A stretch of DNA of 64,000 nucleotides from an uncultured Chloroflexia bacterium (GCA_963704775.1 CAVPHR010000006.1:75-64074), one strand, 5' to 3'; counted from the stretch's first letter, positions 1 through 17,219 are shown. Notes: generated by a model not told the origin, from the letters alone. Numbers and translations: made by a program.

Positions 1-168
1 CCGCGCCATCAGGTCCGGATCGGCGTACGGCGCCGGCGAGTCGAAGATCCGGACCTCGTAGCCGTTCGCCTCGAGGTGCGGGATGAACAGGTCCGTCGCC
101 TCGATGGGCGCGTGGCCGTCCCAGCCCCCGCGGACGACGATGGCGAGCTTCGATGGGGCAGTCGGCAT
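1..168 (-). CDS. ThuA-like domain protein, N-terminal part only (gene runs off the left edge)
   Basis: Minus-strand frame from ATG (complement of 166-168) reads MPTAPSKLAIVVRGGWDGHAPIEATDLFIPHLEANGYEVRIFDSPAPYADPDLMAR. The GGW-x-GH N-terminus is typical of ThuA-like proteins. It is absent from the ORF track because no stop lies inside the window. Confidence 0.5.
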   Translation of the reverse strand, partial: MPTAPSKLAIVVRGGWDGHAPIEATDLFIPHLEANGYEVRIFDSPAPYADPDLMAR

Positions 169-464
169 GCGGGACGCGGTCTCCGTTCTAACGGTGGGAT
201 GGGCGGGCGACGCGATCCGCGGGTCCGAGCCGGGCGGCGCGGGCGCCGCGTGATCCCGGGCGACAGCCCTGGCGGACATCGTCCGAGTTCTATCACGGCT
301 CCGGCTTCCGCGGCGGCGCTCGCCGCCGCGTCGATCAGGCGGACGGCGGGCTGGCGGCCAGGCCGGGGTGCCCTTGATCGGCTTGATCACGACCGTGCCG
401 GTCAGGGCTTCCGACGGGGTCCGTTTCTAGAGCGATCCCGGCATGGTTGACGCAGGGAACTGGC

Positions 465-1431
465 TTAGCCTTTCGCTTGGAAGTCGAGCCAGCATGACTT
501 GGGTGGTACCAAGGTCTCAAGTTCGATCCACAGGTCAGGCGGCGGCTCGACGGCGGCTGATGCCATGAGCGTCGAGATCCGGCTAGGTTTCGTGAAACCG
601 ACAACGGTTGAGTGCACGCGGGGATCACGCATCGAGAATTGCAGGGCCGCCGTGGCTAGATCAGTGCCGTTTCTCAAGCAGGCGTCGTTCATGGCAGCGA
701 CGGCATCGAGGACGAGCTTGGGTGCCTCGGTATAGCCGTACCTAGACGACCCAGTCGGGTTGGCGAGGACACCTCCGCCGTAGATCGCGGCGTTCAGCAC
801 CCCCATGCCGGCCGCGGTTGCCTGGTCGATCAGCTCGTCCGCGCTTCGATCGACAAGGGTCCAACGATTGTGTGTGAGTAGAACCTCGAAGACGCCCAGG
901 TCAAGGTAGCGTGAAACAACGTGAACATTGCCTGCGGCGATGCCGATGTGTTGCACCCGGCCTTCGTCCTTTAGAGCAACCAGCGTGTCAACCGCTCCTC
1001 CTGCCTGCGTGATCATGGCGAAGTCGTGGTATTCCGGATCGTGCAAGAAGAGCAACGGAAGTACACCAAGCCCGAGCCGCTCCTGACTCTCATCAAGCGA
1101 GCGTCGCACCCGATCACCGGAGTAGTCACCGTGTCGTGCGTCCACTTTGGTGATCACCGTAAAGTCCTCTGGCAATCCCCCCGCGGCAGCGATGCCGACG
1201 CCGATCCGGCGCTCGCTCTCGCCTTCGCTGTAAGCGTTGGAGGTATCGAAGGCCCGAATCGGACTCTTCAGTACCTGTTGGACGAGATCGATGGCATCGG
1301 CCTCCGCGACCGCGTAGCCGTACAGTCGACAGCATGGTCCCAAGGGGGGAAGCACCCGCGATGATCGCCGAGGTCGAAACTGACGTATTGCCCAGTCTGC
1401 GGATCCAATTCGTGGGCAACGGGTCAGTCAT
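465..1431 (-). CDS. Aldo/keto reductase (D-threo-aldose / L-fucose 1-dehydrogenase-like), apparent frameshift near 1321-1340
   Basis: The N-terminus lies in one minus frame from ATG 1431: MTDPLPTNWIRRLGNTSVSTSAIIAGASPLG. The rest lies in the 465..1355 frame: LYGYAVAEADAIDLVQQVLKSPIRAFDTSNAYSEGESERRIG...LLFLHDPE. Together they make a complete AKR. Joining them needs a 1-nt frame change. Confidence 0.7.
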
Positions 1432-1524
1432 CGAGAGCCTCCCCGATCCGCGCATGGCCGTCAAACAGCCAGTCCCGTTCGCGCACGGTGCCGACGCCGA
1501 CCGCGGCGGCCCGACCGTCGGCGG

Positions 1525-3660
1525 TCACGGTTGTCTCTCTGCAAGCACCCGAACATCCCAGGGCCCGAGTTGGACGTGATCTTGGGTGTGGAACGTTTCC
1601 CCAGTCAGAATGTCGTGCACCTCGGTGGGCACGGATACTGAGGCGGGATCCCAGGACCAGTTGTGCAGGAATCGGAGCCTGGTTCCGTCGACGGCCGCTG
1701 CGCCGGTCGAGGTCATCGTGGCCGGCAGCTCGCACCAGGGTTGAACGACGTCGGTGGCTAGCCACTGGAAGAGCGACTTGGCAAAGCTCGAGTCGGGGAT
1801 GGTGCCGACGCATGTGATGCGACCCCTCTCGTGGTCACGCGTGGTTATCGCCGGCCATCGACTGAAGTGCGGGTGTTCGTATGTCGCGACGACCTGCGCG
1901 TCGTCTACGAGCAGTCCGTCACACCATCGCGTGGCCGTAGCCGCGTCGAGCTTGATCGTGGCCCCGTCGGCAGGAAGAACAGGGATCATGCTCTTCAGGT
2001 TGCTGAACTCGTCATAGTGGACGCCTGAAGCCTGTGCCAGGCGGCCGGGAGCCGTCTCGGTCCGAGCGCGCGCCTCGTGATCCGCGTATCCGGTCCGTGG
2101 GCCGATGACGAGATGCCCTCCCGCGGCCGCGTAGTCCGCCAGCCAGTCGAGTAGGTGGTCCGGGCTCATGTAGTGGCCGGGCACGACGAGGAGCGGATGA
2201 CTGGCGGCGAACTCGGCCGGATGGGTGGTGGTCGCCTTCCGGGAATGCAGGATCCGGGCCGAGAGTCCGGCGTCGAAAGCGCCGCGGTAGAAGGGGGCGA
2301 AGATCCCGTCGTACGCCCGGGCATCGGGTCCGCCTCCCGCTGCCGCCAACGGCGGGTATTTCTGCATGAGCCAGCGGTTCGGGAGCGAATACAGGAAGGC
2401 GACTTCTGCGTCGGGTCGACATCCCGCCACCAGCCGTCCTGCGCGCCGGAACTCGTCACCGACCTGGCGGAGCTCGTCGAAGGTTCGGCCCGGGTGACCC
2501 GCGTGGGGAAGGACCCCACCCCAGGAGGTTTCGGTACCGAAGTGCAGCGTGTGCCAGTGCCAGTACTCGACCATCCGCGCTCCACGGGCGACCAGCGCCC
2601 ACGCGACCTGACGCCACTGGCCGTCAAAGGCAGGGCGGTTGTCCCAGGGAGGACCGATGTGCATGGCATTGGTTTCGGTGACGAGGAAGCCCTCTTGGCG
2701 TGAGGAGTACATCCGGTCCGCGGAGAAGTACAGCGCCCAAGTTCCGGTGGTGGCCCAGTTCTGATCGTGCGGTCCGGAGCCGTCGTCCGGGAGCTGTAGC
2801 CCGTCCTGCATGGCGTAGTAGAGGTTCCCCCCAGTGGTGTCGAGGGCATCAGTGACCAGATCGTCGTCGACGGCGGGCCGGTCGTAGGCGATGCAGGTCG
2901 TGACGAACTGTCCGGGGGAGGAGTACTCCCGGACGATGTCGGCCTGCCAGTTGATGAACTGGGTGGTCTGCGCGGCCTGGAAGCGACGCCAGGCGACGTC
3001 GTACTGGGGCTGCGTGTTGCCATCGGGTGCCCAAAGATCGTCCCAGGTCGAGAGTCGGTGCGACCAGTAGACGAGGCCCCACTCACGGTTGAGGCTGTCT
3101 ACGTCGCCGTAACGATGACGCAGGTCGTCCACGAAGCGTTGGAAGACGCCGCGGTTGTGAAGGAGATGAAGGCCGGGTTCGTTGTCGACTTGGAAGCCGA
3201 CGACGGCGGGATGCCCCGCATAGCGACGAAGGATCTTGCGGATCACCCGGTCGGCATGGAAGAGGAAGGCTGGGTGCGTGAAATCGACTTCCTGCCGAGC
3301 CCCCCAAGGGATCCGTTCGCCCGTGGATCGTTCGCCGGCGATCTCCGGATACAGCCGGGCCAACCACGGCGGCACGGCATACGTGGGCGTGCCAAGGATG
3401 ACGGAGATGCCCCGCCGCGCGGCACCGTCGAGAACCGGCTCGAGCCAGTCCAGATCGAACTGGCCGTTCTCCGGTTCCCAGGTCGACCAGACCGACTCAC
3501 CGACTCGGATGACCGAGAAGTGCGCCTCCTGCATGAGATCGAGATCGACATCCAGCCGGTCATACGGTTGGTACTCGTGGTAGTAAGCCGCACCGAACAA
3601 CACGCGGTCGGAACCGGCCAACATCGCCCCACTCCTGTCGTCGTTCACTGCCCGGGTCAC
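1525..3660 (-). CDS. Glycoside hydrolase family 42 (beta-galactosidase-type)
   Basis: 711-aa ORF with the GH42 N-terminal TIM-barrel signature FGAAYYHEYQPYDRLDVDLDLMQEAHFSVIRVGESVWSTWEPENGQFDLDWLEPVLD. The GTG start overlaps the upstream GntR stop (GTGA). Confidence 0.85.
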   Translation of the reverse strand: MTRAVNDDRSGAMLAGSDRVLFGAAYYHEYQPYDRLDVDLDLMQEAHFSVIRVGESVWSTWEPENGQFDLDWLEPVLDGAARRGISVILGTPTYAVPPWLARLYPEIAGERSTGERIPWGARQEVDFTHPAFLFHADRVIRKILRRYAGHPAVVGFQVDNEPGLHLLHNRGVFQRFVDDLRHRYGDVDSLNREWGLVYWSHRLSTWDDLWAPDGNTQPQYDVAWRRFQAAQTTQFINWQADIVREYSSPGQFVTTCIAYDRPAVDDDLVTDALDTTGGNLYYAMQDGLQLPDDGSGPHDQNWATTGTWALYFSADRMYSSRQEGFLVTETNAMHIGPPWDNRPAFDGQWRQVAWALVARGARMVEYWHWHTLHFGTETSWGGVLPHAGHPGRTFDELRQVGDEFRRAGRLVAGCRPDAEVAFLYSLPNRWLMQKYPPLAAAGGGPDARAYDGIFAPFYRGAFDAGLSARILHSRKATTTHPAEFAASHPLLVVPGHYMSPDHLLDWLADYAAAGGHLVIGPRTGYADHEARARTETAPGRLAQASGVHYDEFSNLKSMIPVLPADGATIKLDAATATRWCDGLLVDDAQVVATYEHPHFSRWPAITTRDHERGRITCVGTIPDSSFAKSLFQWLATDVVQPWCELPATMTSTGAAAVDGTRLRFLHNWSWDPASVSVPTEVHDILTGETFHTQDHVQLGPWDVRVLAERQP

Positions 3661-4415
3661 TCCTTGACGCTCCCAGCGGTGAACTTCGGGATCTGCCTGG
3701 CTTCTGCGTTCGCGCTCCCACCGTCGACAAAGGTCTCGAGCCGCTCCAGCGCTGACACCAGGTGGGCGCGCATCGCTTCCTCGGCGCCATCCGGGTCGTG
3801 CTTGGCGACCGCATCGACCACCGCCAGGTGCTCGTTCTTCGTCACCGAATGAAGGCCCGCGTGGTAGTAGAGCCGGAAGGTGTGCAGGTGGCTGCGCAGT
3901 CGGGTCAGCATGTCGCTGATCATCTGGTTGCCCGCGAGGTCGGCGACCATCGCGTGGAAGGTCGCGTCATAGACCATGTCCAACCGGTTCGCCGCAGCCG
4001 TGATCTCGCCGCCGGCTCCACCGGCCCGGGCAGCGCGGCGCAGCTCCTTGATCTCGTTCGGCTCCGCCTGGGCAGCGGCCTTGGCGGCCAATGCGGGTTC
4101 CACGAGCAGCCGCAGCTCGATGAGCTCGCGCACCTGCTCGATCCCCATGAGGGGCGCCACCGTGTAGCTGCGCCCTGGCTGCTTCACGATCAAACCGTCG
4201 GCCTCGACGCGTGCCAAGGCCTCGCGCACCGGTGTCGGCGACACGCCGAGGGTGCGGGCGAGCTCTTCGATGTTGAGCCTGGCGCCGGGTTCGAACGCGT
4301 GGGTCATGAGCATGTCGGTGACGATCTCGTAGACCGAGCCGGGCAGCGGTTGCCGTTGGGCCAGGCGCTGTCCTGCGGCGGACTCATGGATTGCTTCGAT
4401 CTGATAACGGTCCAT
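3657..4415 (-). CDS. GntR-family transcriptional regulator (FadR/FCD-type C-terminal domain)
   Basis: Winged-HTH motif LNIEELARTLGVSPTPVREALARVEADGLIVKQPGRSYTVAP followed by a helical FCD-like domain. Divergent from the ABC importer operon. Confidence 0.85.
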   Translation of the reverse strand: MDRYQIEAIHESAAGQRLAQRQPLPGSVYEIVTDMLMTHAFEPGARLNIEELARTLGVSPTPVREALARVEADGLIVKQPGRSYTVAPLMGIEQVRELIELRLLVEPALAAKAAAQAEPNEIKELRRAARAGGAGGEITAAANRLDMVYDATFHAMVADLAGNQMISDMLTRLRSHLHTFRLYYHAGLHSVTKNEHLAVVDAVAKHDPDGAEEAMRAHLVSALERLETFVDGGSANAEARQIPKFTAGSVKE

Positions 4416-4470
4416 CTCGGCCTTCGCGTGTCGAGTACTGGACGGCTACGTTACAGCATCCCAATCGTCT

Positions 4471-4493
4471 CTATCCTATAGACAATAGGATAG
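4471..4493. promoter_or_regulatory. Candidate operator: perfect 9-bp inverted repeat CTATCCTAT-agaca-ATAGGATAG in the GntR/ABC divergent promoter region
   Basis: AT-rich perfect palindrome read directly in the 100-bp intergenic gap (4416-4515). It lies between the divergent GntR gene and the permease gene in otherwise GC-rich DNA. Confidence 0.45.
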
Positions 4494-4515
4494 CGTGCTG
4501 GCATAGTCCGCGACG

Positions 4516-5652
4516 ATGCAGGACAAGGGAGGGCGCGACGTGCTCGACGACGAGTCGGTGACTCGCACTGCTGCCGACGTCGCCGACGTCGCACCAGAGC
4601 CTGAGATCGGGAGGGGTCCGGATACGGCCAACGACCGATCGTCGCGCGCGATCAAGGGTGTCCTGCTGGCGCTGAAGGCGGGGCCGCTCTTCATCCTGGC
4701 GCTGATGATGCTGTTCCTCTGGGCGGCCACCGAGGGCCACGTCTTCATGACGTTCGGGAACATCGGCAACGTCCTCGAGCAGTCCGCCGGTGTCTGCATC
4801 ATCGCCTTGGGCCAGCTCCTCGTGATCCTGACCCGGGGCATCGACCTGTCGATCGGCTCGAACGTCTCGTTGTGCTGCGTCATGGTGACTGTCGTCTACC
4901 GCGACACCAACTCGGCGTGGCTGGCCATCGGGGTCACCTTGCTGACGGGGTTGTCCGTCGGTCTGGTCAACGGGCTGCTGCTGGTGTGGGGGCGTCTGCC
5001 GCATCCCTTCATCGCCACCCTCGCCACCTTGAGCATCTGCGCCGGCCTCGCCCTCTACATCGCCGGTGGCTCCACCGTCCTGGGCTCCCCGGAGATCGTG
5101 CACCTGCTCGGCGGCGGACGTATCCCTGGGATCCCGGGCGCGGGCAACATCGGATGGTTCCCCTACGCCACGCTCGTGGTGATCGTCTTCGCGGTCGTCT
5201 GTGCCGTCATCTTGCACAAGCTGGTCTGGGGACGATGGATCTACGCCGTCGGTGGCAGCCCCGAAGCCGCGGTCCGCACGGGCGTGCCGATGAACGGGAC
5301 GTTGATCTCGGTCTACGTCATGAGCGGGCTGTCGGGGGCCATCGGCGGCATGCTCTTCGTCGGAGCCGCTAACGCCGGCTCGCCGTTCACCGGGCAGGGC
5401 ATGGAGCTCAGCGCCATCGCCGCGGTGATCATCGGCGGCGGCAGCTTCCTGGGCGGCCGTGGCGGTGTCTTGAACGCCCTGACAGGTGCGTTGATCCTCG
5501 GGGTCATGCACAACGGCCTCAACCTGCTCGGTCTCGACCCGAACTTCCAGTACATCGCGGTGGGAGTGGTCGTCCTCGTCGCGGTCGAGCTCGACGTCTT
5601 GCGGGCCCTCGTCGAGAACCGGTTCCGAAGCATGCAGGCGAGGCTCGCATGA
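4516..5652 (+). CDS. Sugar ABC transporter permease (CUT2 / RbsC-AraH family)
   Basis: 378-aa polytopic membrane protein with the typical RbsC-like C-terminal half (AIAAVIIGGGSFLGGRGGVLNALTGALILGVMHNGLNLLG). ATGA overlap with the ATPase gene. Confidence 0.85.
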   Translation: MQDKGGRDVLDDESVTRTAADVADVAPEPEIGRGPDTANDRSSRAIKGVLLALKAGPLFILALMMLFLWAATEGHVFMTFGNIGNVLEQSAGVCIIALGQLLVILTRGIDLSIGSNVSLCCVMVTVVYRDTNSAWLAIGVTLLTGLSVGLVNGLLLVWGRLPHPFIATLATLSICAGLALYIAGGSTVLGSPEIVHLLGGGRIPGIPGAGNIGWFPYATLVVIVFAVVCAVILHKLVWGRWIYAVGGSPEAAVRTGVPMNGTLISVYVMSGLSGAIGGMLFVGAANAGSPFTGQGMELSAIAAVIIGGGSFLGGRGGVLNALTGALILGVMHNGLNLLGLDPNFQYIAVGVVVLVAVELDVLRALVENRFRSMQARLA

Positions 5653-6446
5653 CTGACGCCGTTCACGTCGTGGTGCCCTCCGACGTGGAACCCGTCCTGA
5701 GCGTTCGTGGTGCCACCAAGACCTTCGGGGCCGTGGTTGCACTCGAGGGCGTCGACCTCGAGGTCCGCGCCGGTGAGGTTCTCGCCCTGCTCGGCGACAA
5801 CGGCGCCGGCAAGTCGACCCTCATCAAGTGCATCAGCGGCGTCCACAAACTCGACCGAGGCGAGATCCAGATCGACGGGGCCCCCGTGCAGATCACCTCG
5901 GCGGCCGATGCCCGATCAAATGGGATCGAGACCGTCTACCAAGACCTGGCCCTGTTCGACAACCTCAACCCGACGGCGAACTTCTTCGCCGGCCGCGAAG
6001 TGGCGGGGCCGTCCTGGCTGCCACGCGGTCTCCAGTGGATGAAGCAGAAGGAGATGTCCACCCGTACAAAGGACCTTCTCGACCGTTTGCAGATCCGGCT
6101 CCCTGACTTCGATGCTGACGTGGCGCTGATGTCGGGGGGCCAACGCCAGGCGGTGGCGGTCGCGCGAGCCGTGGCGTTCTCCTCGAAGCTCGTCATCCTC
6201 GACGAGCCGACTGCCGCCCTCGGGCTTCGGGAGTCGGCGCGGGTCCTGGAGCTGGTCGATCGGCTCCGAACCTCCGGCGTCGCGGTCATCTTGATCTCTC
6301 ACAGCATGGATCACGTGATGGCGGTCGCGGACCGGGCGATGGTCATGCGCCGCGGCCGCAAGATCGGCGAGGCGCCGGCGACCGCGGACAACCAAGAGCA
6401 ACTCGTGTCCTGGATCGTCGGGGCCCGAGGGAGCACCACCGTTTGA
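5649..6446 (+). CDS. Sugar ABC transporter ATP-binding protein (single ABC domain, FrcA-like)
   Basis: Walker A GDNGAGKST, signature MSGGQRQAVAVARA, Walker B LVILDEPTAAL. 265 aa. Confidence 0.9.
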   Translation: MTDAVHVVVPSDVEPVLSVRGATKTFGAVVALEGVDLEVRAGEVLALLGDNGAGKSTLIKCISGVHKLDRGEIQIDGAPVQITSAADARSNGIETVYQDLALFDNLNPTANFFAGREVAGPSWLPRGLQWMKQKEMSTRTKDLLDRLQIRLPDFDADVALMSGGQRQAVAVARAVAFSSKLVILDEPTAALGLRESARVLELVDRLRTSGVAVILISHSMDHVMAVADRAMVMRRGRKIGEAPATADNQEQLVSWIVGARGSTTV

Positions 6447-6519
6447 AGCTTCACCACCTGGACGCACGGCACGTGCGGCAGATCCGACAAGGAAGATCCG
6501 ACAAGAAGGAGCAACACAC

Positions 6520-7538
6520 ATGTCGACTCGACTGAAGGCGTTGGTCGTGCTCGGAGCGGGGGCGATGCTCATCGCCGCGTGCAGCAGCAGCGGCGGGGGG
6601 ACCGCGGCGCCGTCCGCGAGTGCCTCGCGGCGCCGTCCGCGAGTGCCGCGGCGCCGTCCGCGAGTGCGAGCGCAGCCGCGAACGAGAAGATCAAGGTCAC
6701 GCTTCTCACCAAGGCCACGGGCGGTTTCTGGGATGCCATGATCGCGGGCGCCAAGCAGTATGAGACCGATCACCCGAACGACATCGAGCTCACGACCAAC
6801 GCGTGCAAGACCAACGACGACACGCCCTGCCAGATCGCGCAGATCCAGGACGCTGTCACCAAGGGCGCCCAGGCGATCGTGATCTCCCCGATGGGCGTTG
6901 GCGTCACCGATGCCCTCAATGAGGCTCAGCAGGCAGGCGTCCGGATCGTCTTCGTCGACAACACGATCCCCGGTGTCGTGCCGGATGCGGTTGCGGCTAC
7001 GAACAACGTCAAGGGCGGCGAGGCTGCCGGCGCGTACATCAAGAGCCAGCTGAAGTCGGGCGACACCATCGGTCTGCTCGAAGCCGTGCGTGGCGTGCCG
7101 AACCTCGACCAGCGCATCGACGGTGTCAAGGCAGCGCTCGAAGGTACTGGCGTCAAGGTCGTGATCGGGGCTCAGCAGACCCTGTGTGACACCAAGACCG
7201 GCGCCTCGGTGACGCAGGACCTGCTCACCAAGTACCCGAACCTCACAGCGATCTACTCGGCGTGCGACTCCCCGGCGATGGGTGCCGTGGCGGTCGCGGA
7301 GTCCAAGCAGCACCCGCTGCTGATCTTCGGCTACGACGGTGACCCGGAAATGGCCAAGCTCATCGAGGCAGGCAAGACCACAGCCACGATGGCGCAGTCG
7401 CCGTTCAAGATGACGAACCTCGGCGTCGAGGCGGCAGTCAAGTCGCTCAAGGGCGAGAACTACGTGAAGGCCATCGACACAGGCACCACGCTCGTGACGA
7501 AGGACAACGCGGCCGACTTCACGTCAGCCTGGCAGTAA
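6520..7538 (+). CDS. Sugar ABC substrate-binding lipoprotein (periplasmic-binding-protein type I), frame break at ~6625
   Basis: Signal peptide plus lipobox (MSTRLKALVVLGAGAMLIAAC) lies in the frame starting at 6520. The mature domain (KIKVTLLTKATGGFWDAMIAGAKQYE...VFVDNTIPG...) lies in the 6579..7538 frame. The switch falls inside a 21-nt tandem repeat. Confidence 0.75.
6604..6668 (+). repeat. Three tandem copies of a 21-nt unit gcggcgccgtccgcgagtgcc (AAPSASA linker), with 2 extra nt (tc) after copy 1
   Basis: Copies at 6604-6624, 6627-6647 and 6648-6668, read directly. The tc at 6625-6626 breaks the reading frame of the binding-protein gene. Confidence 0.8.
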
Positions 7539-7590
7539 CTCCTTCCGCATGGGAGCACGCTTCGGACGCCGGCTCAAAGGGCATCCGAAG

Positions 7591-7619
7591 GGCCCGGCAC
7601 TACCGGTGAGTGCCGGGCC
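7591..7619 (+). terminator. Stem-loop (11-bp stem) downstream of the binding-protein gene
   Basis: GGCCCGGCACT-accggtg-AGTGCCGGGCC. No U-tract follows. Confidence 0.45.
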
Positions 7620-7651
7620 ACGTGCTCCCGTGAAACCCTAGTCCACCAACG

Positions 7652-7695
7652 CCTGTCCGCCTCGGCCTGGCCTCCTCCGGGCCGAGGCGGACAGG
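7652..7695 (+). terminator. Stem-loop (16-bp GC-rich stem), putative terminator or processing site
   Basis: CCTGTCCGCCTCGGCC-tggcctcctccg-GGCCGAGGCGGACAGG. It lies immediately upstream of the dehydratase RBS. Confidence 0.55.
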
Positions 7696-7723
7696 CCCCC
7701 TCATCCATCCCACGGAGAAGCAC

Positions 7724-9058
7724 GTGCCGGTCACCATCACGGCGGTCATCGCATCGGACATCCGGTTTCCTACCTCACTGGCGCTTGACGGGTCCGACGC
7801 GATGAACCTCGAGCCCGATTATTCGGCGGCCTATGTCGTCCTCGAGACCGATCACCCGGACGGCCTCGAGGGTCACGGGCTGACATTCACGAGCGGCCGG
7901 GGCAACGAGCTGTGTGTCGAGGCGATCGAGGCCCTCGCCCCGCTCGTCGTCGGTCGGACCCTCGAGTCGTTCACGGCGGATCTCGGTGCCTTCTGGTCGC
8001 ACATCGTGGGCGACAGCCAGCTCCGCTGGGTCGGGCCCGAAAAGGGTGTCATCCACCTCGCCACCGCCGCCATCGTCAACGCCGTGTGGGACCTATATGC
8101 CAAGACCGAGGGCAAGCCGCTCTGGAAGGTCATCGTCGACATGACCCCGGAGGAGCTCGTCCGGTGCATCCCGTTCCGCTACATCACCGATGCCCTGACA
8201 CCCGCCGAGGCCCTCGACATCCTGCGCCGCAACGAACCGACCAAGGCGGCCCGCGAGGCCGAGATGCTGGCAACGGGCTACCCGGCCTACACCACCTCGA
8301 CCGGCTGGCTCGGCTACCCCGACGACAAGGTCCGTCGGCTGGCCCGGGAGGGAGTCGCGGCGGGCTGGACGCATTTCAAGATCAAGGTCGGGCGTGATCT
8401 CGAAGAGGACATCCGGCGGGCGCGGATCCTGCGCGACGAGATCGGACCGGACCGGATCCTCATGGTAGACGCCAACCAGGTCTGGGACGTCGACCAGGCG
8501 ATCGCCTGGATGGAGCGCCTCGCACCATTCCAGCCATGGTGGATCGAGGAGCCGACCAGCCCGGACGACATCCTCGGCCATGCCCGGATCGCCCGCGCGC
8601 TCGCCCCGTATGGCATCGGCGTCGCGACCGGCGAGCACTGCCACAATCGGGTGATGTTCAAGCAACTCCTGCAGGCCGAGGCGATCGCGTTCTGCCAGGT
8701 GGACGCCTGTCGCCTGGGCGGCGTGAACGAGGTGCTGGCGGTGCTCTTGCTGGCGGCCAAGTTCGGCGTGCCGGTATGTCCCCACGCCGGTGGCGTGGGC
8801 CTGTGTGAGTACGTCCAGCACCTTGCGATCATCGACTACATCGCGATCAGCGCATCGCTCGCGGATCGCGTCGTCGAGTACGTCGATCACCTCCACGAGC
8901 ACTTCGTCGACCCGGTCGTCGTCGTCTCGGGGCGCTACCAGGCGCCGGCCGCGCCCGGCTACTCGATCGAGATGAGATCCGCCTCGCGGGCCGCCTACGC
9001 GTACCCGGACGGCAGTGCCTGGCTTGCGCTGCGCGAAGCCGGGGCTGTCCGGGCTTGA
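7724..9058 (+). CDS. L-fuconate dehydratase family enzyme (enolase superfamily, mandelate racemase subgroup)
   Basis: The N-terminus DIRFPTSLALDGSDAMNLEPDYSAAYVVLETD is the hallmark of characterised FucD-type dehydratases. The barrel carries metal ligands (MVDANQVWD, IEEPTSPDD) and HAGGVGLCE. GTG start after GGAGAAG. Confidence 0.9.
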   Translation: MPVTITAVIASDIRFPTSLALDGSDAMNLEPDYSAAYVVLETDHPDGLEGHGLTFTSGRGNELCVEAIEALAPLVVGRTLESFTADLGAFWSHIVGDSQLRWVGPEKGVIHLATAAIVNAVWDLYAKTEGKPLWKVIVDMTPEELVRCIPFRYITDALTPAEALDILRRNEPTKAAREAEMLATGYPAYTTSTGWLGYPDDKVRRLAREGVAAGWTHFKIKVGRDLEEDIRRARILRDEIGPDRILMVDANQVWDVDQAIAWMERLAPFQPWWIEEPTSPDDILGHARIARALAPYGIGVATGEHCHNRVMFKQLLQAEAIAFCQVDACRLGGVNEVLAVLLLAAKFGVPVCPHAGGVGLCEYVQHLAIIDYIAISASLADRVVEYVDHLHEHFVDPVVVVSGRYQAPAAPGYSIEMRSASRAAYAYPDGSAWLALREAGAVRA

Positions 9059-9699
9059 ACGTCCTCGAGCGGATCGCCGCCAGCGGAGTCGTCCCGGTCG
9101 TCCGGATCGAGCGGGCGGAGGATGCGCCGGCGCTCGCCCGCGCGCTACGGGACGCAGGCCTGGCGTGTATCGAGATCACCTTCCGTTCCGCCGCCGCCGC
9201 GGAATCGATCCGCGCGATCCGGACCGAGGTTCCCGACGTGCTGGTCGGGGCGGGAACCGTCATCTCGCGGGCCCAGCTCGACGAGGCCCTCGCGGCAGGC
9301 GCGGAGTTCATCGTGAGCCCCGGTCTGCAGGTAGACGTGGTCCGGGCGTGTCAGGGTGGAGGCACACCGGTCCTGCCCGGAGTCTTCACGCCCACGGAGG
9401 TGATCCAGGCGATGGACCTCGGCCTGTCTGTCGTGAAGCTCTTCCCCGCCTCATCGGCAGGCGGGCCGGCATATCTGCGCACGTTGGGCGGCCCGTTCCC
9501 GGCGCTGCGTTTCGTGCCGACCGGCGGGATCGAGGCAGCGGACCTGGCAGCGTATCTCGGGGTGCCATCGGTCCTGGCGGTGGGTGGCAGCTGGATGGTC
9601 CGTCCGGGGCTGCTTCTCGAACGAGACTGGGCTGCGGTCGGTCGGCTGGCCCACGAGGCGAGTGAGGTCGTCCGGACCGTGCGCCCTCCGGCGCCCTGA
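9055..9699 (+). CDS. eda: 2-dehydro-3-deoxy-phosphogluconate / 4-hydroxy-2-oxoglutarate aldolase
   Basis: MNVLERIAASGVVPVVRIERAEDAPALARALRDAGLACIEITFRS ... VVKLFPA ... FVPTGGI is the class I KDPG aldolase pattern. The start overlaps the dehydratase stop. Confidence 0.85.
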   Translation: MNVLERIAASGVVPVVRIERAEDAPALARALRDAGLACIEITFRSAAAAESIRAIRTEVPDVLVGAGTVISRAQLDEALAAGAEFIVSPGLQVDVVRACQGGGTPVLPGVFTPTEVIQAMDLGLSVVKLFPASSAGGPAYLRTLGGPFPALRFVPTGGIEAADLAAYLGVPSVLAVGGSWMVRPGLLLERDWAAVGRLAHEASEVVRTVRPPAP

Positions 9700-10796
9700 T
9701 GGCATTGACAGTGCGTCCGCCGTCGGACTCGCGTTGGGACCTGGTGGCATTGGGCGAAGTGATGCTGCGCCTGGATCCGGGTGACGAGCGGATCCAGAGC
9801 GCCCGTCAGTTCAGGGCGTGGGAAGGCGGCGGCGAATACAACGTCGCCCGTGGCCTGAGTCGCTGCTTCGGCGCGTCGACCACCATCGTGACGGCCTTCG
9901 CAGACAACCCGGTCGGCCGGTTGATCGAAGACCTCATCCGACAGGGCGGCGTGGATCGCTCGCACATCCGCTGGGTCCCGTACGACGGGATCGGCCGCAC
10001 GGTCCGCAACGGCCTGAACTTCACGGAGCGCGGCTTTGGCGTGCGCGCGGCGGTCGGAAGCTCGGACCGGGCCAACACGGCGGCGTCCCAGCTGACCGCC
10101 GAGGACGTGGATTGGGAGGCGATCTTCGGCGCTGAAGGCGCGCGCTGGTTCCATACGGGCGGGATCTTCGCGGCACTTTCGGACACCACCCCGGGCGTGA
10201 TCGCGGCGGCGATCGAGGCGGCGCACCGGCACGGCACGGTCGTCTCATTCGACCTCAACTACCGCGACTCGTTGTGGCGCGGCCGAGGCGGTGGTCCCGC
10301 CGCCCAGCGGGTCCTTGCCGCGATCGTCGCATCGGTCGATGTGCTCATCGGCAACGAGGAGGACTTCGTCGCCGCGCTCGGCCTCGACGTCGCCGGCACG
10401 GACGGGTCGTTCGACCAGCTCGAGTCGGAGGCCTACGCGGCGATGCTCGCGGTCGCCGCGACGCGTTTCCCGAACCTGAAGGCGATCGCGGTCACCCTTC
10501 GGGTCGCCCGGACGGCCAATCGCAACGACTGGGGTGCCCTGCTCTGGTCGGATGGGGTCGTCTACCCAGCGACCACCCGGCGCGACCTCGATATCCTCGA
10601 TCGCATCGGCGGCGGCGACTCATTCGCATCGGGCCTCATCCACGGCTGGCTCGCCGGCCATCCGCCGCAGGTCGCCGTCGAATACGGAGCCGCGCACGGC
10701 GCCCTGGCGATGACGACCCCGGGCGACACGTCGATGGCGACGCAAGCCGAGGTAGAGGCGCTCATGGCAGGTGCCGGCGCCCGGGTCCGCCGATGA
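9699..10796 (+). CDS. kdgK: 2-dehydro-3-deoxygluconokinase-like PfkB-family sugar(acid) kinase
   Basis: Ribokinase/PfkB motifs (DLVALGEVMLRLDP, GGGEYNVARGL, DRIGGGDSFASGLIHG). TGATG overlap with eda. Confidence 0.8.
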   Translation: MALTVRPPSDSRWDLVALGEVMLRLDPGDERIQSARQFRAWEGGGEYNVARGLSRCFGASTTIVTAFADNPVGRLIEDLIRQGGVDRSHIRWVPYDGIGRTVRNGLNFTERGFGVRAAVGSSDRANTAASQLTAEDVDWEAIFGAEGARWFHTGGIFAALSDTTPGVIAAAIEAAHRHGTVVSFDLNYRDSLWRGRGGGPAAQRVLAAIVASVDVLIGNEEDFVAALGLDVAGTDGSFDQLESEAYAAMLAVAATRFPNLKAIAVTLRVARTANRNDWGALLWSDGVVYPATTRRDLDILDRIGGGDSFASGLIHGWLAGHPPQVAVEYGAAHGALAMTTPGDTSMATQAEVEALMAGAGARVRR

Positions 10797-11794
10797 ACCG
10801 GCCGGCTCTCGTCCTCACCGGCGTCGACAGCTTCGTCGTGGAACAGCGACCGCCGGCGGAGTCTACCGGCGACGCAGTCGCCATCGACGTCGATCTCGTG
10901 GGCCTGTGTGGGACGGACCTGCACATCGTCGAAGGCTCCCATCCCCGGGCTCGTTTCCCGCTCGTCCTCGGACATGAACTGGTCGGGCGAGCGACGGCGG
11001 GGCAACTGGCAGGGCGGGCGGTCGTGGTCGATCCGCTCATCGCCTGCGGCGACTGCTCGGCCTGCCGCCTTGGCGAGCGACACGTATGCGCCAACCTGCG
11101 CCTGATCGGCATCGATCGGGATGGCGGGCTGAGTGGGCGGGTCGTCGTGGACTCGGAGCGGGTGCACGTGGTGCCGGCCGGACTCGATCCGGTGGTGGCC
11201 GCCCTGGCAGAGCCGCTGGGGGTCGCCGTCCACGCAACCCGTCGCGCTCACGTCGGCGTTGGCGACACGATCGTGATCATGGGCGCAGGACCGATCGGGC
11301 TCCTGCTGGCGTTCGCAGCGCGACACGTCGGGGCGGCCACGATCCTCATCGGCGAGACTGCCCCGGCCCGGCGGACGTTCGCCGAGTCGCTCGGTTTCGA
11401 CACGCTTGACACGGTGGATCCGTTCGGCGACCTCGAGCGGCACACGTCGGGCCGCCTGGCTGACGTCGCGTTCGACGCTGCCGCGGTGCCAGCTGTTGCC
11501 GCACTCTTGCCTCGGCTCGTCCGGCCGGCCGGGCGCATCGGCCTCGTCGGCACCTACGCGCGGCCCGTCGAGCTCGACCTCCAGGCCATCCTCTTCAAGG
11601 AACTGACAGTGCTCGGCAATCGGGTCTACCAGCCGGCCGACATCGACGCGGCACTCCGGATGCTGGCGGACGGCCCGGCGGCGTTCAGACCGCTGATCAG
11701 CGAAGTCGTTGGGCTCGATGAGGCGCCGGCGGCGTTTGCGCGGTTGCGCGCGGGTGAGGGAGTCAAGTACCTCGTCGCGACGGGTGGGCGTTGA
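10793..11794 (+). CDS. Zn-dependent medium-chain alcohol/polyol dehydrogenase
   Basis: Starts MNRPALVLTGVDSFVVEQRPP...LVGLCGTDLHIVEG...PLVLGHELVG..CGDCSACRLGERHVC..GAGPIGLL. ATGA overlap with kdgK. The long upstream extension of the 10274 ORF is Arg-rich shadow sequence. Confidence 0.8.
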   Translation: MNRPALVLTGVDSFVVEQRPPAESTGDAVAIDVDLVGLCGTDLHIVEGSHPRARFPLVLGHELVGRATAGQLAGRAVVVDPLIACGDCSACRLGERHVCANLRLIGIDRDGGLSGRVVVDSERVHVVPAGLDPVVAALAEPLGVAVHATRRAHVGVGDTIVIMGAGPIGLLLAFAARHVGAATILIGETAPARRTFAESLGFDTLDTVDPFGDLERHTSGRLADVAFDAAAVPAVAALLPRLVRPAGRIGLVGTYARPVELDLQAILFKELTVLGNRVYQPADIDAALRMLADGPAAFRPLISEVVGLDEAPAAFARLRAGEGVKYLVATGGR

Positions 11795-12822
11795 TGCGCG
11801 CCCTGGTCAAGACGACCCGCGGTGTCGGCCACCTCGCGTTACAGGAACGGCCGGAACCCGAGGCAGTGGCCGGCTGGGTGAAGATCGCCGTCCGGTACGC
11901 TGGGATCTGCGGGACCGATCTGCACATCGTCCAGGACGAGTTCCCGTACTGGCCGCCGGTCACCCTCGGCCACGAGTTCACGGGGACCGTTGTCGAGCTC
12001 GGTGGCGGCGTCGATCCGGCCTGGCTTGGAGCACGAGTGGTCAGCGAACCGCACTCCCTGGCCTGCGGCACCTGCCACCTGTGCCGCCGTGGCTTCGCGG
12101 AGCTGTGTGCCAGCAAGCGTTCGCCCGGCTGGGGGATCGACGGCGCGTTCGCCGACCGGCTGACGATGCCTGTGCATCTCCTCCACCGTGTCCCGGCCGG
12201 GTTGCCCGACCGAGTCGCGGCCCTGGCCGAGCCGATGGCCGTGTCGGTCACCGCCCTCGCGCGGGCCGGCGTCCAGGCCGGCGACGTCGTCCTTATCGTG
12301 GGCCCCGGGCCGATCGGCATCCTGCTCGCGGCCGGTGCGCTCGCGATGGGTGCCGCGACCGTCGTGGTGGCCGGCCGGCGAGATTCGGACCGCCTCCGGT
12401 TCGCAGGGACCGTGGGAGCGCTGACGGTCCTGGACGACTCAGCGGTCGAGCTCATCCAGGACCAGACCGCCGGCCGCGGGGCAGACCTGGTCATCGACGC
12501 GACCGGAACGGCCGAGGCGATCGACCTCGCGCTCAGAGCGGTCCGGCGCCGAGGTAGGTTCGCGGCTGTGGGGATGAGCGGCCAGCCGGTCGTGCGGGTC
12601 CCATGGGATCTGGCCGTCTCGCGGGCCGTCGATGCGACCTTCTCGATGAGTTCGAACGGCACGGCGTGGGCGCCGGCGATCACGATCCTCGAGCGAACCC
12701 CGCAGCTCGAAGGCATGAGCACCGTCTTCCCGCTCGGCGACTGGGAGGCCGCGTTCGAGGCTGTCCGCGAGCGGACGGTCATCAAGGCGCTCCTCGACCC
12801 GACGACCGGCGCCGGGCGATGA
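11794..12822 (+). CDS. Zn-dependent medium-chain dehydrogenase (sorbitol / L-idonate / L-galactonate 5-dehydrogenase-like)
   Basis: MRALVKTT...YAGICGTDLHIVQDEFPYWPPVTLGHEFTGTVVELG...CGTCHLCRRG...VGPGPIGIL. Start codon overlaps the previous stop (TGATG). Confidence 0.8.
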   Translation: MRALVKTTRGVGHLALQERPEPEAVAGWVKIAVRYAGICGTDLHIVQDEFPYWPPVTLGHEFTGTVVELGGGVDPAWLGARVVSEPHSLACGTCHLCRRGFAELCASKRSPGWGIDGAFADRLTMPVHLLHRVPAGLPDRVAALAEPMAVSVTALARAGVQAGDVVLIVGPGPIGILLAAGALAMGAATVVVAGRRDSDRLRFAGTVGALTVLDDSAVELIQDQTAGRGADLVIDATGTAEAIDLALRAVRRRGRFAAVGMSGQPVVRVPWDLAVSRAVDATFSMSSNGTAWAPAITILERTPQLEGMSTVFPLGDWEAAFEAVRERTVIKALLDPTTGAGR

Positions 12823-13757
12823 CAGTGGCGGGCACGATCCTCATCACCGATTGCGACCATCCATCGACCGAGATCGAACGGGCCATGGTCGAGGCAGCCG
12901 GGTTCCGGCTCGAGGTTGCCGACTGCCGCACCGCGGCCGACGTCATCGCAGCGGGCACGACCAGCGCGGCGGCCGGACTGATCGTCCAGTACGCACCCAT
13001 CACCGGGGAGGTGTTGCGCGCCCTGCCGGCCTGTCGGGTCGTGGGCCGGTACGGTGTCGGACTCGATACGATCGACCTCGAGACCGCCGCGTCGCTGGAC
13101 ATCCGGGTCGTCAACGTGCCGGACTACTGCACGGACGAAGTCGCCGACCATGCCCTGGGACTGATCCTGGCCCTGACCCGTGGGATCGTCCCGCTCGACC
13201 GAGGAGTCCAGGCCGGCATCTGGGACTTCCGCCTGGCGGGGCGCGTTCGCCGCCCATCGAGCCAGCAGGTGGGCGTGGTCGGGCTCGGTCGGATCGGTTC
13301 GGCGTTCGCACGGCGTGCGCGGGCGCTCGGCTACACGGTGGTCGGCTCGGATCCGCGGGGACCACGCGCCTCGGATGTGCAGGTCGTCGAACTCGACGAC
13401 CTGCTTGCGACGAGCGACATCGTCAGCATCCATGCTCCGCTCGACGCCTCGACCCGCCATCTCATCGACGCGCGAACGCTGGCGCTGATGCGTCCCACGG
13501 CCATCCTGGTCAACACCAGCCGAGGCGGCCTGGTCGACCACGATGCCCTCGTCGACGCCCTGCGGTCAAGTCGTCTGGCGGGGGCGGCTCTCGATGTGCT
13601 CGAGCACGAGCCGATCCCGGCAGACGACCCATTGATCGGGCTCCCGAACGTGGTCCTGACGCCACACGCCGCGTTCTACAGCGAGGAATCGCTGGTCGAG
13701 ATGAAACAGAAGGTCACCCAGCGGGTATTGGCAGTCCTCGCCGACGGGGCCGGGTGA
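12819..13757 (+). CDS. D-isomer-specific 2-hydroxyacid dehydrogenase (CtBP/PGDH-like)
   Basis: MTVAGTILITDCD..., RVVGRYGVGLDTIDLETAASLDIRVVNVPDYCTDEVADHALGLILAL, GVVGLGRIGSAFARRARALGY, LVNTSRGGLVD, TPHAAFYSEES. ATGA overlap with the previous gene. Confidence 0.85.
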   Translation: MTVAGTILITDCDHPSTEIERAMVEAAGFRLEVADCRTAADVIAAGTTSAAAGLIVQYAPITGEVLRALPACRVVGRYGVGLDTIDLETAASLDIRVVNVPDYCTDEVADHALGLILALTRGIVPLDRGVQAGIWDFRLAGRVRRPSSQQVGVVGLGRIGSAFARRARALGYTVVGSDPRGPRASDVQVVELDDLLATSDIVSIHAPLDASTRHLIDARTLALMRPTAILVNTSRGGLVDHDALVDALRSSRLAGAALDVLEHEPIPADDPLIGLPNVVLTPHAAFYSEESLVEMKQKVTQRVLAVLADGAG

Positions 13758-13800
13758 AACGTCCGGTCAGAGATCGCACGCTATCGAAGGATGGCGATCC

Positions 13801-13949
13801 GGCGAATCAGGTGAACGTCCAGAAGTCGAATCAGGTGAACTTCGCGGCATCGCGTGGCTCCTTCTTGGAGTCCACGCCCTTGCTCTTGCCGCACGAAACC
13901 ACCAGATGTGGTGTGGAGGTGTTCCATGGATCGCTACCCATGGGGTAGC
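13801..13949. repeat. Copy 1 of a tRNA-adjacent module (two TCAGGTGAAC motifs plus two hairpins)
   Basis: Alignable by eye to 20542-20688. Shared blocks are ggcgaatcaggtgaacg, agaagtcgaatcaggtg, ggctccttctt, ccgcacg and aaccaccagatgtggtg. It ends in hairpin GCTACCC-atg-GGGTAGC abutting the tRNA-derived repeat. Confidence 0.6.
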
Positions 13950-13994
13950 TGGCTGGCGAGGAAGGATTCGAACCTTCGATCTCCTGATCCAGAG
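13950..13994 (-). repeat. Partial tRNA-Gln (3' 45 nt, CCA end to anticodon loop): att-like direct repeat
   Basis: tggctggcgaggaaggattcgaaccttcgatctcctgatccagag is identical to 20689-20733 inside the complete tRNA-Gln. Identity ends in the anticodon loop. Confidence 0.85.
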
Positions 13995-14430
13995 GACTCC
14001 CGACGTATTTCGCCGATGGTCGGTGCGATCTGAGCGTGGCGCGGGCTCGATTTCGGTTGGTCCGGCGGGCAATCAGGTTGAACATGCCGGACGGAGTCAG
14101 GTGAACGTCATTCGTTCAAGTAACTCCGGGACTGAACGTAACGCGCTCGACGACGGTTGGGAAGGGGAGCGGTTCCCGCTGTTCCGACGACTCCTGGTCC
14201 CGAACAGCTCATCTGACGTGCAAAGACATCCGCAACGATTATCGCGGGAGGCAACAGTTCAGCGAATGCGGGAGTGGTTCGCCGAACCATTGCCGGGGTG
14301 ATCGTTCTTGCTTGCATAGCTGTCCAGGACCACCACGATGAGTCTGGGGAAGCGGACGTGCCACTATTCGAAGACGTCGATATCGAGTCCGTGGCGGCAA
14401 AGGGGGTGGGGTGAGGTGACAGCAGGAAGC

Positions 14431-15363
14431 ATGATGGCGTTGAGGGCGCACAGGCAGGGTGGCCCGGAAGTTCTGGTATATGAATCTGCGCCACGGCCGA
14501 CCCCGGGGAGCGACGAGGTTCTGATCAGCGTCCACGCGGCGGCGATCACGTTCGCCGAGTTGACCTGGCCCGAGACTTGGGCCACGGATGGTGTCGACCG
14601 GACTCCGGTCATCCCGTCCCACGAGTTCTCTGGGGTCGCGGCCGAGGTCGGCGATGGCGTAACCGGACTGTCGGTCGGTGACGAGCTGTACGGGCTTGTG
14701 CCGTTCGACCGGGACGGCGCCGCGGCGGAGTACGTCAGCGTACCGGCCGCGAGTGTGGCCACCCGGCCTCGCACGGTGTCGCACGTCGTTGCGGCGGCCG
14801 CGGTGCTCCCTGCACTGACCGCCTGGGAAGCCTTGGTCGATCACGCGAAAGTTCAACCCGGCCAACGTGTGCTCGTGCGTGGAGGCGCCGGCGGTGTCGG
14901 GTCCTTCGTCACCCAGCTGGCGACTGCGCTTGGAGCCCGGGTCACGGCCACGGTGCATGCCCCCGACGCGGGGCACGTCCTCACTCTGGGCGCCGAACGC
15001 GTGATCACCAACGAACAGGAGTCGCTCGACGCGGAGAAAGGTGCCTTTGACGCCGTGATCGACGCCGTCGGTCAGGAAACACCGGAGGCCCTGTTCGCGG
15101 CACTCCGTCCTGGCGGGCGCCTGATTACCCTCCAGGAGCCTCCCTCACAGCAGACGGCCGACAAATACGGCGTAACGGCCCTCTTCTTCGTCGTGACGGC
15201 GAACCGGGACCGTCTGTCACAGGTGGCCGACATGATCGACACCGGCAAGCTGAAGGTCAGCGTCGCCGCGACGTTTCCGCTGGCCGATGGCCGAGCCGCC
15301 TACCAAAGCGGCGCCTCTAGGAGACACCGCCCGGGGAAGACCGTGCTGGTCGTCCGGGACTGA
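14431..15363 (+). CDS. NADPH:quinone oxidoreductase-like MDR (zeta-crystallin family)
   Basis: MMALRAHRQGGPEVLVYESAPRPTPGSDEVLISVHAAAITFAELTW...RVLVRGGAGGVGSFVTQLA...GKTVLVV. ATG preceded by AGGAAG. The upstream part of the 14338 ORF is not conserved-looking. Confidence 0.8.
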   Translation: MMALRAHRQGGPEVLVYESAPRPTPGSDEVLISVHAAAITFAELTWPETWATDGVDRTPVIPSHEFSGVAAEVGDGVTGLSVGDELYGLVPFDRDGAAAEYVSVPAASVATRPRTVSHVVAAAAVLPALTAWEALVDHAKVQPGQRVLVRGGAGGVGSFVTQLATALGARVTATVHAPDAGHVLTLGAERVITNEQESLDAEKGAFDAVIDAVGQETPEALFAALRPGGRLITLQEPPSQQTADKYGVTALFFVVTANRDRLSQVADMIDTGKLKVSVAATFPLADGRAAYQSGASRRHRPGKTVLVVRD

Positions 15364-15377
15364 GCGGTTCTCCGCAG

Positions 15378-16358: not shown

Positions 16359-16423
16359 GTCGTACGCGCCGCGAGACACATAGCTCCGCGAGGCGGCTGC
16401 CTCGCCGTACAGCGCATCTGGGG

Positions 16424-16578: not shown

Positions 16579-16612
16579 AACATAAGTTCCACGTTCGGAC
16601 TCACCGAAAGCC

Positions 16613-17206: not shown

Positions 17207-17219
17207 CGCCGGCGGCTAG

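Follow-up and report, generated by a model that had tools for sequence, protein, structure and literature searches.

A FucD-family dehydratase beside a kinase, an aldolase and three dehydrogenases: a candidate L-galactose locus in an uncultured Chloroflexia bacterium

Genes for FucD-family dehydratases are often found beside genes for a 2-keto-3-deoxygluconate (KDG) kinase and a 2-keto-3-deoxy-6-phosphogluconate (KDPG) aldolase, two enzymes that cannot act on a 6-deoxy acid. What such a combination degrades is the question raised by a twelve-gene locus at positions 465-13757 of a 64,000-nucleotide stretch of DNA from an uncultured Chloroflexia bacterium (GCA_963704775.1 CAVPHR010000006.1:75-64074; the whole stretch is termed the window). 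The reading given here would answer this recurring annotation puzzle. The locus may form one regulated unit that takes up a hexose of L-galacto configuration, most likely L-galactose, and degrades it by an oxidative, semi-phosphorylative route; we give this about an even chance of being correct.

In the proposed pathway, a CUT2-type ABC system would import the sugar and an aldo-keto reductase (AKR) would oxidize it at C1; the lactone would open spontaneously or through an Amidohydro_2 lactonase encoded elsewhere. The FucD-family enzyme would convert L-galactonate to 2-keto-3-deoxy-L-galactonate (L-KDGal), a compound that has the 4(S)-hydroxyl group in common with KDG (PMC11199699). As L-KDGal has the C4 of KDG but the wrong configuration at C5, it is C5 that would be oxidized, by an NAD-dependent zinc enzyme of the medium-chain dehydrogenase/reductase (MDR) family termed MDR1, to give 2,5-diketo-3-deoxygluconate. 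Reduction of C5 to the D configuration would then yield KDG, the best candidate being a second, NADP-type enzyme, MDR2, with a D-2-hydroxyacid dehydrogenase (HADH) as an alternative or auxiliary. The kinase (KdgK) would form KDPG, and the aldolase (Eda) would split it to pyruvate and D-glyceraldehyde-3-phosphate. Direct phosphorylation of L-KDGal would presumably lead to L-glyceraldehyde-3-phosphate instead. Most likely, the upper half of a FucD route here continues into the lower half of the route that agar degraders use for 3,6-anhydro-L-galactose. The features of the locus are as follows.

465-1431, minus strand: aldo-keto reductase, probable L-galactose-type aldose 1-dehydrogenase, 321 amino acids (Pfam Aldo_ket_red)
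1525-3660, minus strand: GH42 glycosidase, 711 amino acids (three GH42 Pfam domains)
3657-4415, minus strand: GntR/FCD-family transcription regulator (Pfam GntR and FCD), overlapping the GH42 start by 4 nt
4471-4493, no strand assigned: perfect 9+9 inverted repeat CTATCCTAT-N5-ATAGGATAG, candidate operator in the divergent promoter region (100 bp)
4516-5652, plus strand: ABC permease, BPD_transp_2, CUT2 type (Pfam)
5649-6446, plus strand: ABC ATPase with a single nucleotide-binding domain, 265 amino acids (Pfam ABC_tran)
6520-7538, plus strand: lipoprotein sugar-binding protein, Peripla_BP_4 (Pfam and frame translations), with a frame break near 6625
7724-9058, plus strand: FucD-family (enolase superfamily) acid-sugar dehydratase, proposed to form L-KDGal from L-galactonate (full-length similarity)
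9055-9699, plus strand: KDPG/2-keto-4-hydroxyglutarate aldolase, Eda (TIGR01182, 246.1 bits, cut-off 156; PRK05718, 243.9 bits, cut-off 241)
9699-10796, plus strand: PfkB-family kinase, probably for 2-keto-3-deoxy-hexonates (KDG type) (Pfam PfkB, 83 bits)
10793-11794, plus strand: Zn-MDR dehydrogenase MDR1, NAD type, proposed L-KDGal 5-dehydrogenase (Zn ligands, phylogeny, neighbourhood)
11791-12822, plus strand: Zn-MDR dehydrogenase MDR2, NADP-like, proposed 2,5-diketo-3-deoxygluconate 5-reductase (Zn ligands kept)
12819-13757, plus strand: D-isomer-specific 2-hydroxyacid dehydrogenase HADH, NAD type (Pfam 2-Hacid_dh and 2-Hacid_dh_C)

Pfam and NCBIfam place all twelve genes in the families given by an initial annotation of this DNA; two coordinates had to be revised, the AKR gene extending over 465-1431 rather than 465-1355 and the binding-protein gene starting at 6520. 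The gene overlaps described for 9055-13757 are seen on direct reading, with TTGA at 9055, TGATG at 9699, ATGA at 10793, TTGA or TGATG at 11791 and ATGA at 12819. Overlaps amount to 1-4 nt at every junction from 9055 to 12819 and likewise at the permease/ATPase junction (ATGA at 5649). Terminator-like sites were not found between 4516 and 13700, and the 12-gene arrangement is kept in six metagenome-assembled genomes (MAGs).

The dehydratase has as solved relatives human ENOSF1 (4a35; 620 bits, residues 8-436) and the FucD of Xanthomonas campestris (1yey, 2hxt; 569 bits). In the alignment to ENOSF1, the sequences FKIKVG, MVDANQ, IEEPT, ATGEH, QVDACR and PHAGG are matched exactly or almost exactly; we take the KxK strand, the Asp/Glu/Glu ligands and the Asp-His pair to be the parts that serve catalysis and metal binding. 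L-fucose might be thought the obvious substrate, yet the locus is not a Xanthomonas-type L-fucose route. No gene of the short-chain dehydrogenase/reductase (SDR) family and no FAH gene was detected by Pfam or NCBIfam within 1-14400, in agreement with the earlier observation that the 2-keto-3-deoxy-L-fuconate (KDF) dehydrogenase and the FAH hydrolase are both lacking here. The FAH gene and an extended (epimerase-family) SDR gene lie elsewhere, with a second FucD paralogue of the same genome, FucD2, which is 67-74% identical and located on a small contig, C4 (G000, L012 1-10185). FucD2 is accompanied there by CUT1 ABC genes (two permeases and a binding protein), an IclR regulator, an Amidohydro_2 lactonase and an AKR. 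A frame break near 731-750 interrupts FucD2, which is also truncated at the contig end, and the FAH gene on C4 is apparently frame-broken too. In a closely related genome (G040), both FucD genes are on one 2.2-Mb contig, about 295 kb apart, and FucD2 again adjoins AKR, FAH and extended SDR genes. A classical fucose-type lower pathway therefore exists, and it is attached to the other FucD paralogue. SDR and FAH genes just outside the window, which the initial annotation would have taken as a refutation, are not what this arrangement shows. L-fucose has been rejected as the substrate of the present locus because of this separate FucD2/FAH locus and because a 6-deoxy acid is not phosphorylatable. 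The same separation, together with the kinase's need for a C6 hydroxyl, supports the initial choice of a C6-hydroxylated, L-galacto-configured acid as the best candidate.

How would such an acid reach KDG? MDR1 carries the residues Cys39, His61 and Glu62 (catalytic), Cys85/88/91/99 (structural) and, after strand beta-2, Glu188, a position that marks NAD use. It has many unnamed homologues, labelled butanediol or bacteriochlorophyllide dehydrogenase in their sources; of 23 further genomes in the genus, only one carries it. Loci that surround relatives of MDR1, eighty in all, were annotated by tblastn and a GC-frame gene caller, with families checked on representatives; the gene caller at times fuses or misses genes, and neighbour counts were redone with tblastn. 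In two trees the MDR1 subclade (14 rows) is sister to a clade of 35 MDRs, with SH-aLRT supports of 96 and 95.

The sister clade includes an MDR of Steroidobacter agaridevorans (L056) that is 36% identical to MDR1. The gene order there is cycloisomerase (enolase family), MDR, SDR, PhyH and aldehyde dehydrogenase (ALDH); the enolase-family gene scores 367 bits to a solved 3,6-anhydro-L-galactonate cycloisomerase, and the order matches that of Pseudoalteromonas atlantica ABG41066-41069. Where PMC5943477 cites Lee 2014, the products of ABG41066-41069 are described as converting anhydro-galactose to L-KDGal, then to 2,5-diketo-3-deoxy-L-galactonate (L-DDGal) and then to KDG. Most other members of the sister clade are from Actinomycetota and have the operon order MDR, SDR, Eda, KdgK. 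Among the 35 sister-clade loci, a KduD-like SDR is encoded in 33 (one was scored, at 310 bits to TIGR01832 kduD), eda in 19, kdgK in 15, FucD (at least 50% identity) in 13, another enolase-family dehydratase in 12, an L-fucono-lactonase-like gene in 19 and an AKR in 22; RhaM mutarotase genes are also carried by related clusters. KduD-type enzymes interconvert KDG and 2,5-diketo-3-deoxygluconate. In view of this chemistry, the sister-clade operons are most simply read as oxidation of L-KDGal at C5, reduction at C5 to KDG, and formation of KDPG. Inversion of C5 after dehydration would also fit better than inversion before it, because MDR1 relatives adjoin both a KduD-like SDR and a cycloisomerase that makes L-KDGal. 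These neighbourhoods lend support to the initial suggestion that the extra dehydrogenases may carry out a redox epimerization ending in KDG and then KDPG.

The specific order first suggested was a different one: a LgoD-like MDR would oxidize L-galactonate to D-tagaturonate, a second dehydrogenase would form D-altronate, and FucD, in place of UxaA, would produce KDG. In all characterized bacterial L-galactose and L-galactonate routes, those of Escherichia coli, Phocaeicola vulgatus and Luteolibacter LG18, C5 is indeed inverted before dehydration, and UxaA is used (PMC12632266; PMC5507952). A UxaA-family gene was searched for in the present genome and not found, nor was a true KduD, although at 58% completeness not found is not the same as absent. 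Xanthomonas FucD reportedly accepts D-altronate, and the surroundings of C5 are alike in L-galactonate and L-KDGal, such that a related MDR could use either. The phylogeny points the other way. E. coli LgoD, RspB and IdnD all fall outside the MDR1 and sister clades, MDR1 and LgoD are 32% identical, and constraining the MDR1 subclade and LgoD to be joint costs 25.7 units of log-likelihood and is rejected by the AU test (p = 0.022); the assignment of the Zn-MDR to the LgoD type has therefore been abandoned. Furthermore, the MDR1 relatives precede KduD-like SDRs, not tagaturonate reductases, and one adjoins the L-KDGal-making cycloisomerase, while L-galactonate, as a good FucD substrate, would be dehydrated before any epimerization. 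The general idea of the initial annotation is retained, and its order by way of D-tagaturonate and D-altronate, now less supported, is considered unlikely.

The reductive half of the preferred route, with inversion after dehydration, would fall to MDR2. This protein has AGRRDS (Gly-Arg-Arg) where NAD-type enzymes have an acidic residue, as is often the case in NADP-using enzymes, and it forms a clade of its own (support 100) found solely beside MDR1-subclade genes. MDR2 and HADH are both present in 11 of 13 MDR1-subclade loci and a KduD-like SDR in none, whereas the sister-clade loci have no MDR2 and HADH in one case. MDR2 and HADH thus appear to displace the usual KduD-like SDR in the MDR1 subclade. 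With the NAD-type and NADP-like residues and this replacement pattern taken together, MDR1 would be the oxidizing step and MDR2 most likely the reducing one. The HADH sequence shows the GxGxxG...D motif and the full Arg/Glu/His triad in translation, and no equivalog model matched it at cut-off; the protein may be the reductase, a second reductase or an enzyme of a feeder branch. A heteromer of MDR1 and MDR2 was considered and is not claimed.

HADH also suggests another kind of chemistry, namely epimerization at C2, in which HADH would oxidize a D-2-hydroxy aldonate, for instance D-allonate or L-talonate, to its 2-keto acid, an MDR would reduce this product to the L-2 epimer (D-altronate or L-galactonate), and FucD would dehydrate the epimer. 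The triad is that of 2-keto/2-hydroxy acid enzymes, and the second-best NCBIfam model for the binding protein is a D-allose binding protein, at 89 bits. To our knowledge, however, Zn-MDRs are not 2-ketoaldonate reductases; the relatives of MDR1 indicate C5 chemistry on 2-keto-3-deoxy acids, and no gene neighbourhood in support of C2 epimerization was seen among the loci. Such a scheme is very improbable.

At the end of the route, Eda is above cut-off for KDPG aldolase models and scores 115 bits to the KDPGal-aldolase model, below the cut-off of 207. For the kinase, the best models are the kinase half of NF041633 (278 bits) and NF041332, for the haloarchaeal KDG/2-keto-3-deoxygalactonate (KDGal) kinase (162 bits), and in both cases the score lies below the cut-off. 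No NCBIfam model above cut-off names the AKR, the dehydratase, MDR1, MDR2 or HADH.

Which sugar enters is a separate matter, and the caution first expressed, that the sequence cannot fix the substrate, still holds. The sole solved relatives of the AKR at E<=1e-15 are plant L-galactose dehydrogenases, at about 100 bits. L-galactose would be the best candidate in light of these relatives, the lactonase-like and RhaM genes of related clusters, the need of the kinase for a C6 hydroxyl and the separate fucose-type locus. Oxidative routes for D-galactose or L-arabinose by way of FucD were ruled out on stereochemistry by our own reasoning, and the idea that D-galactose is chain-inverted by way of galactitol or galacturonate was dropped as too speculative.

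The GH42 glycosidase displays catalytic, trimerization and C-terminal domains that score 258, 87 and 32 bits in Pfam. Its nearest solved structure is 5xb7 (282 bits), the alpha-L-arabinopyranosidase BlArap42B (PMC8106489). Homologues with 60% identity adjoin the same MDR pathway in loci of Microbacterium, Agreia and Acidothermaceae. A beta-helix protein of about 700 amino acids with a weak GH141 match also adjoins GH42, the MDR pathway or both, together with a CUT1 ABC system, in four loci (L030, L086, L038 and L043) from Microbacterium, Agreia and Microbispora. The GH141-like gene accompanies GH42 in two of the three lineages in which GH42 is beside the MDR pathway, and may encode a fucosidase or galactosidase of the same regulon.

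Several points weigh against the L-galactose reading. Substrates and step order would all derive from family membership, phylogeny and gene neighbourhood. The GH42 relatives release D-galacto- or L-arabino-configured sugars, which FucD would be unable to use, and the pathway as proposed does not account for this gene; a mixed plant glycan bearing both kinds of sugar is a lead here and not a finding. There are three dehydrogenases where two suffice, and HADH is without an assigned step. The tie of MDR1 to the characterized L-KDGal 5-dehydrogenase ABG41067 is by way of a syntenic gene in a second agar degrader. The MDR trees were built by a quick search and have long reference branches, and their sequences do not include the L-galactonate 5-dehydrogenases of Luteolibacter (LguD) and P. 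vulgatus, either of which might belong to the MDR1 clade. In the present assembly, the reading frames of the AKR and binding-protein genes are interrupted. Lastly, the cluster is without a lactonase or mutarotase.

As a lactonase is lacking, a reduction of D-galacturonate to L-galactonate retains some probability. Such a bacterial version of the fungal reductive pathway would use the AKR to make L-galactonate and FucD to make L-KDGal, would require neither of the two missing enzymes and would continue by the same lower steps. There is precedent in fungi, in which a reductase is followed by an enolase-family L-galactonate dehydratase that yields L-KDGal (PMC11219438). Three observations disfavour this route: the AKR has only L-galactose 1-dehydrogenases as solved relatives, the binding protein belongs with the neutral-sugar binders of the ribose/allose type, and L-fucono-lactonase-like and RhaM mutarotase genes are carried by related clusters. 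The D-galacturonate route is regarded as highly unlikely.

A further question is whether the twelve genes serve one pathway at all. In two related loci (L019 and L024), compared with window positions 1525-13757, identity is 88-98% across the genes GH42 through FucD and 72-86% across eda through hadh. The drop at the FucD/eda junction suggests recombination that may have swapped a lower-pathway cassette between lineages. In a complete genome (L020), where FucD is located elsewhere, the neighbours of the five-gene cassette encode a LacI regulator, an enolase-family dehydratase of a different kind, an L-fucono-lactonase-like protein, an AKR and RhaM. Distant triad loci carry ALDH, IclR, GMC oxidoreductase and other enolase-family genes, and in one case a weak GH88 match. 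It is conceivable, therefore, that an uptake/GH42/FucD module has been combined with a separately acquired eda-kdgK-MDR-MDR-HADH cassette, and that the two serve separate substrates, or a range of them, through promiscuous enzymes; unsaturated-uronate products, D-arabinose and L-fucose are examples. Set against this are the overlaps at all junctions from FucD to HADH, the arrangement kept in six MAGs, and the presence of FucD or another acid-sugar dehydratase beside the MDR in most related loci. Such a mosaic is considered distinctly unlikely.

The same comparisons may be accommodated by the single-pathway reading. The lower pathway behaves as an exchangeable cassette, as seen from the drop in identity in L019 and L024 and from the arrangement in L020, and it may take L-KDGal-like intermediates from several sources, as the varied neighbours of the distant triad loci suggest. 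More tentatively, and with a probability that we place at about one-third, a third bacterial L-galactose route may exist, defined by a FucD-type dehydratase and C5 inversion at the 2-keto-3-deoxy level, widespread in Actinomycetota and found in soil Chloroflexota. In it, eda-kdgK-MDR1-MDR2-HADH would be an exchangeable 'L-KDGal funnel' and MDR2/HADH would have displaced KduD. If this is true, the funnel would be fed by FucD, by other enolase-family dehydratases and by aldehyde dehydrogenases, and HADH would have a sugar-acid activity so far undescribed.

The candidate operator at 4471-4493, in the divergent promoter region, is unique in the 3.38-Mb genome, with up to one mismatch per arm allowed, and it overlaps the sole sigma-70-like site of the region, at 4479-4507. 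The binding protein encoded downstream has 4yle as its nearest solved structure (117 bits), an entry that names no ligand. The gene starts at 6520, where a lipobox is encoded in a frame other than that of 6579-7538. A 21-nt repeat at window positions 6604-6668 encodes AAPSASA in the linker and here splits the signal peptide from the frame of the mature domain; its copy number and unit length vary across six related MAGs.

The stretch 7724-13757 occurs in soil, rhizosphere, plant and urban metagenomes and in six soil metatranscriptome runs. Four RNA runs, of which two appear to be a single data set, yielded contigs that match the locus with 95-100% identity and span each of the junctions between FucD and HADH. 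These contigs give neither strand nor transcript ends, and their low-cover parts were left aside. The coverage is compatible with expression of the locus as one unit in soil, and is weak evidence because DNA carry-over is possible. Over the ABC ATPase gene (5761-6240), contig depth when summed is 10-20x higher than elsewhere in each of the four RNA-library runs, which likely reflects conserved ATPase sequence of many other organisms and not higher expression.

The window lies at the start of a contig of 988 kb, in a genome of 3.38 Mb and 71% G+C on six contigs. It begins 74 nt from the contig end, and DNA to the left of the AKR gene is beyond the reach of this assembly. Near-identical loci are found in soil MAGs of uncultured Chloroflexia/Candidatus Limnocylindrales. 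The open reading frame at 465-1355 is the 3′ part of the AKR gene, which has its ATG at 1431 and one extra base near 1326. The N-terminus, including the active-site stretch DTSNAY, is in another frame here and in a single continuous frame in four related MAGs, and an intact copy is present at L111:1420-2385. The extra base is absent from contigs of three of the four RNA-library runs. Compared with the soil RNA-library contigs, the assembly has one extra base near 1326 and near 7666 and one missing near 1440; these differences and the 58% completeness point to indel errors across the assembly. As marker-gene completeness is estimated at only 58%, errors in long-read assembly, rather than decay, may account for the frame breaks in both the AKR gene and the binding-protein gene.

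Downstream of the operon, the motif AATCAGGTGAAC(G/T)TC occurs three to four times at window positions 13795-14115. The copies flank a stretch at about 13935-13995 that resembles the 3′ part of a minus-strand tRNA; an ARAGORN scan of 13500-17500 called no tRNA. Directly after the operon, at 14338-16358, are two more MDR-family genes, of the quinone-oxidoreductase type (ADH_zinc_N_2), which are outside the conserved cluster of related MAGs.

The proposal is not new biochemistry in kind: each step has a known precedent, and it is the join that the searched literature does not describe. It would supply a testable function for a large unnamed Zn-MDR clade, for the KduD-like SDRs that follow its genes and for the MDR2 and HADH pair. 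If correct, it adds an L-galactose route in abundant, uncultured soil bacteria. Likely sources of L-galactose are the side chains of plant pectin and xyloglucan and red-algal galactans. Bacterial catabolism of L-KDGal was treated as still open in a 2024 review (PMC11219438), and in the non-phosphorylative L-galactose route L-KDGal is oxidized at C4 (PMC11199699). The literature searched held no description of FucD combined with C5 inversion of L-KDGal, KdgK and Eda, no paper linking FucD with KduD or an L-KDGal 5-dehydrogenase for L-galactose, and no characterization of the Actinomycetota clusters of FucD, MDR, KduD-like SDR, Eda and KdgK.

Among known systems, the 3,6-anhydro-L-galactose pathway of P. 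atlantica T6c (ABG41066-41069) resembles the proposed route in its sequence of L-KDGal, Zn-MDR, 2,5-diketo-3-deoxy acid, 5-reductase, KDG, KDG kinase and KDPG aldolase. It differs in that L-KDGal is formed there by an aldehyde dehydrogenase and a cycloisomerase and here would be formed by a FucD-family dehydratase. The SDR reductase would be replaced here by a NADP-like MDR and a D-2-hydroxyacid dehydrogenase, and the host is a soil Chloroflexota bacterium whose locus is without agarase genes. Shared with the L-fucose pathway of X. campestris (XCC4065-4069; Yew et al. 2006) are the FucD-family dehydratase and the aldose dehydrogenase of AKR type; FucD is known to accept L-galactonate as a side substrate. 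In contrast to that pathway, KDF 4-dehydrogenase and FAH are lacking, and a kinase, a KDPG aldolase and three other dehydrogenases are present instead.

The tagaturonate pathways of E. coli (LgoD-UxaB-UxaA), P. vulgatus and Luteolibacter LG18 (lguABCDE; PMC12632266) would have the same start, the same end (KDG, KDPG, pyruvate and glyceraldehyde-3-phosphate) and a redox inversion of C5 in common with the proposed route. The inversion there comes before dehydration by a UxaA-type enzyme, whereas here the dehydratase is of the FucD type and the MDR is not LgoD-like. Also comparable are the Actinomycetota clusters of FucD, MDR, KduD-like SDR, Eda and KdgK in Microbacteriaceae, Micrococcaceae and others, which display the same logic and an orthologous MDR clade. 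They often contain AKR, GntR/FCD, L-fucono-lactonase-like and RhaM genes, and some have the 60%-identical GH42, but they have a KduD-like SDR where this locus has MDR2 and HADH. Many of them also include FAH, consistent with a combined fucose/galactose design, whereas the Chloroflexota genome splits the two.

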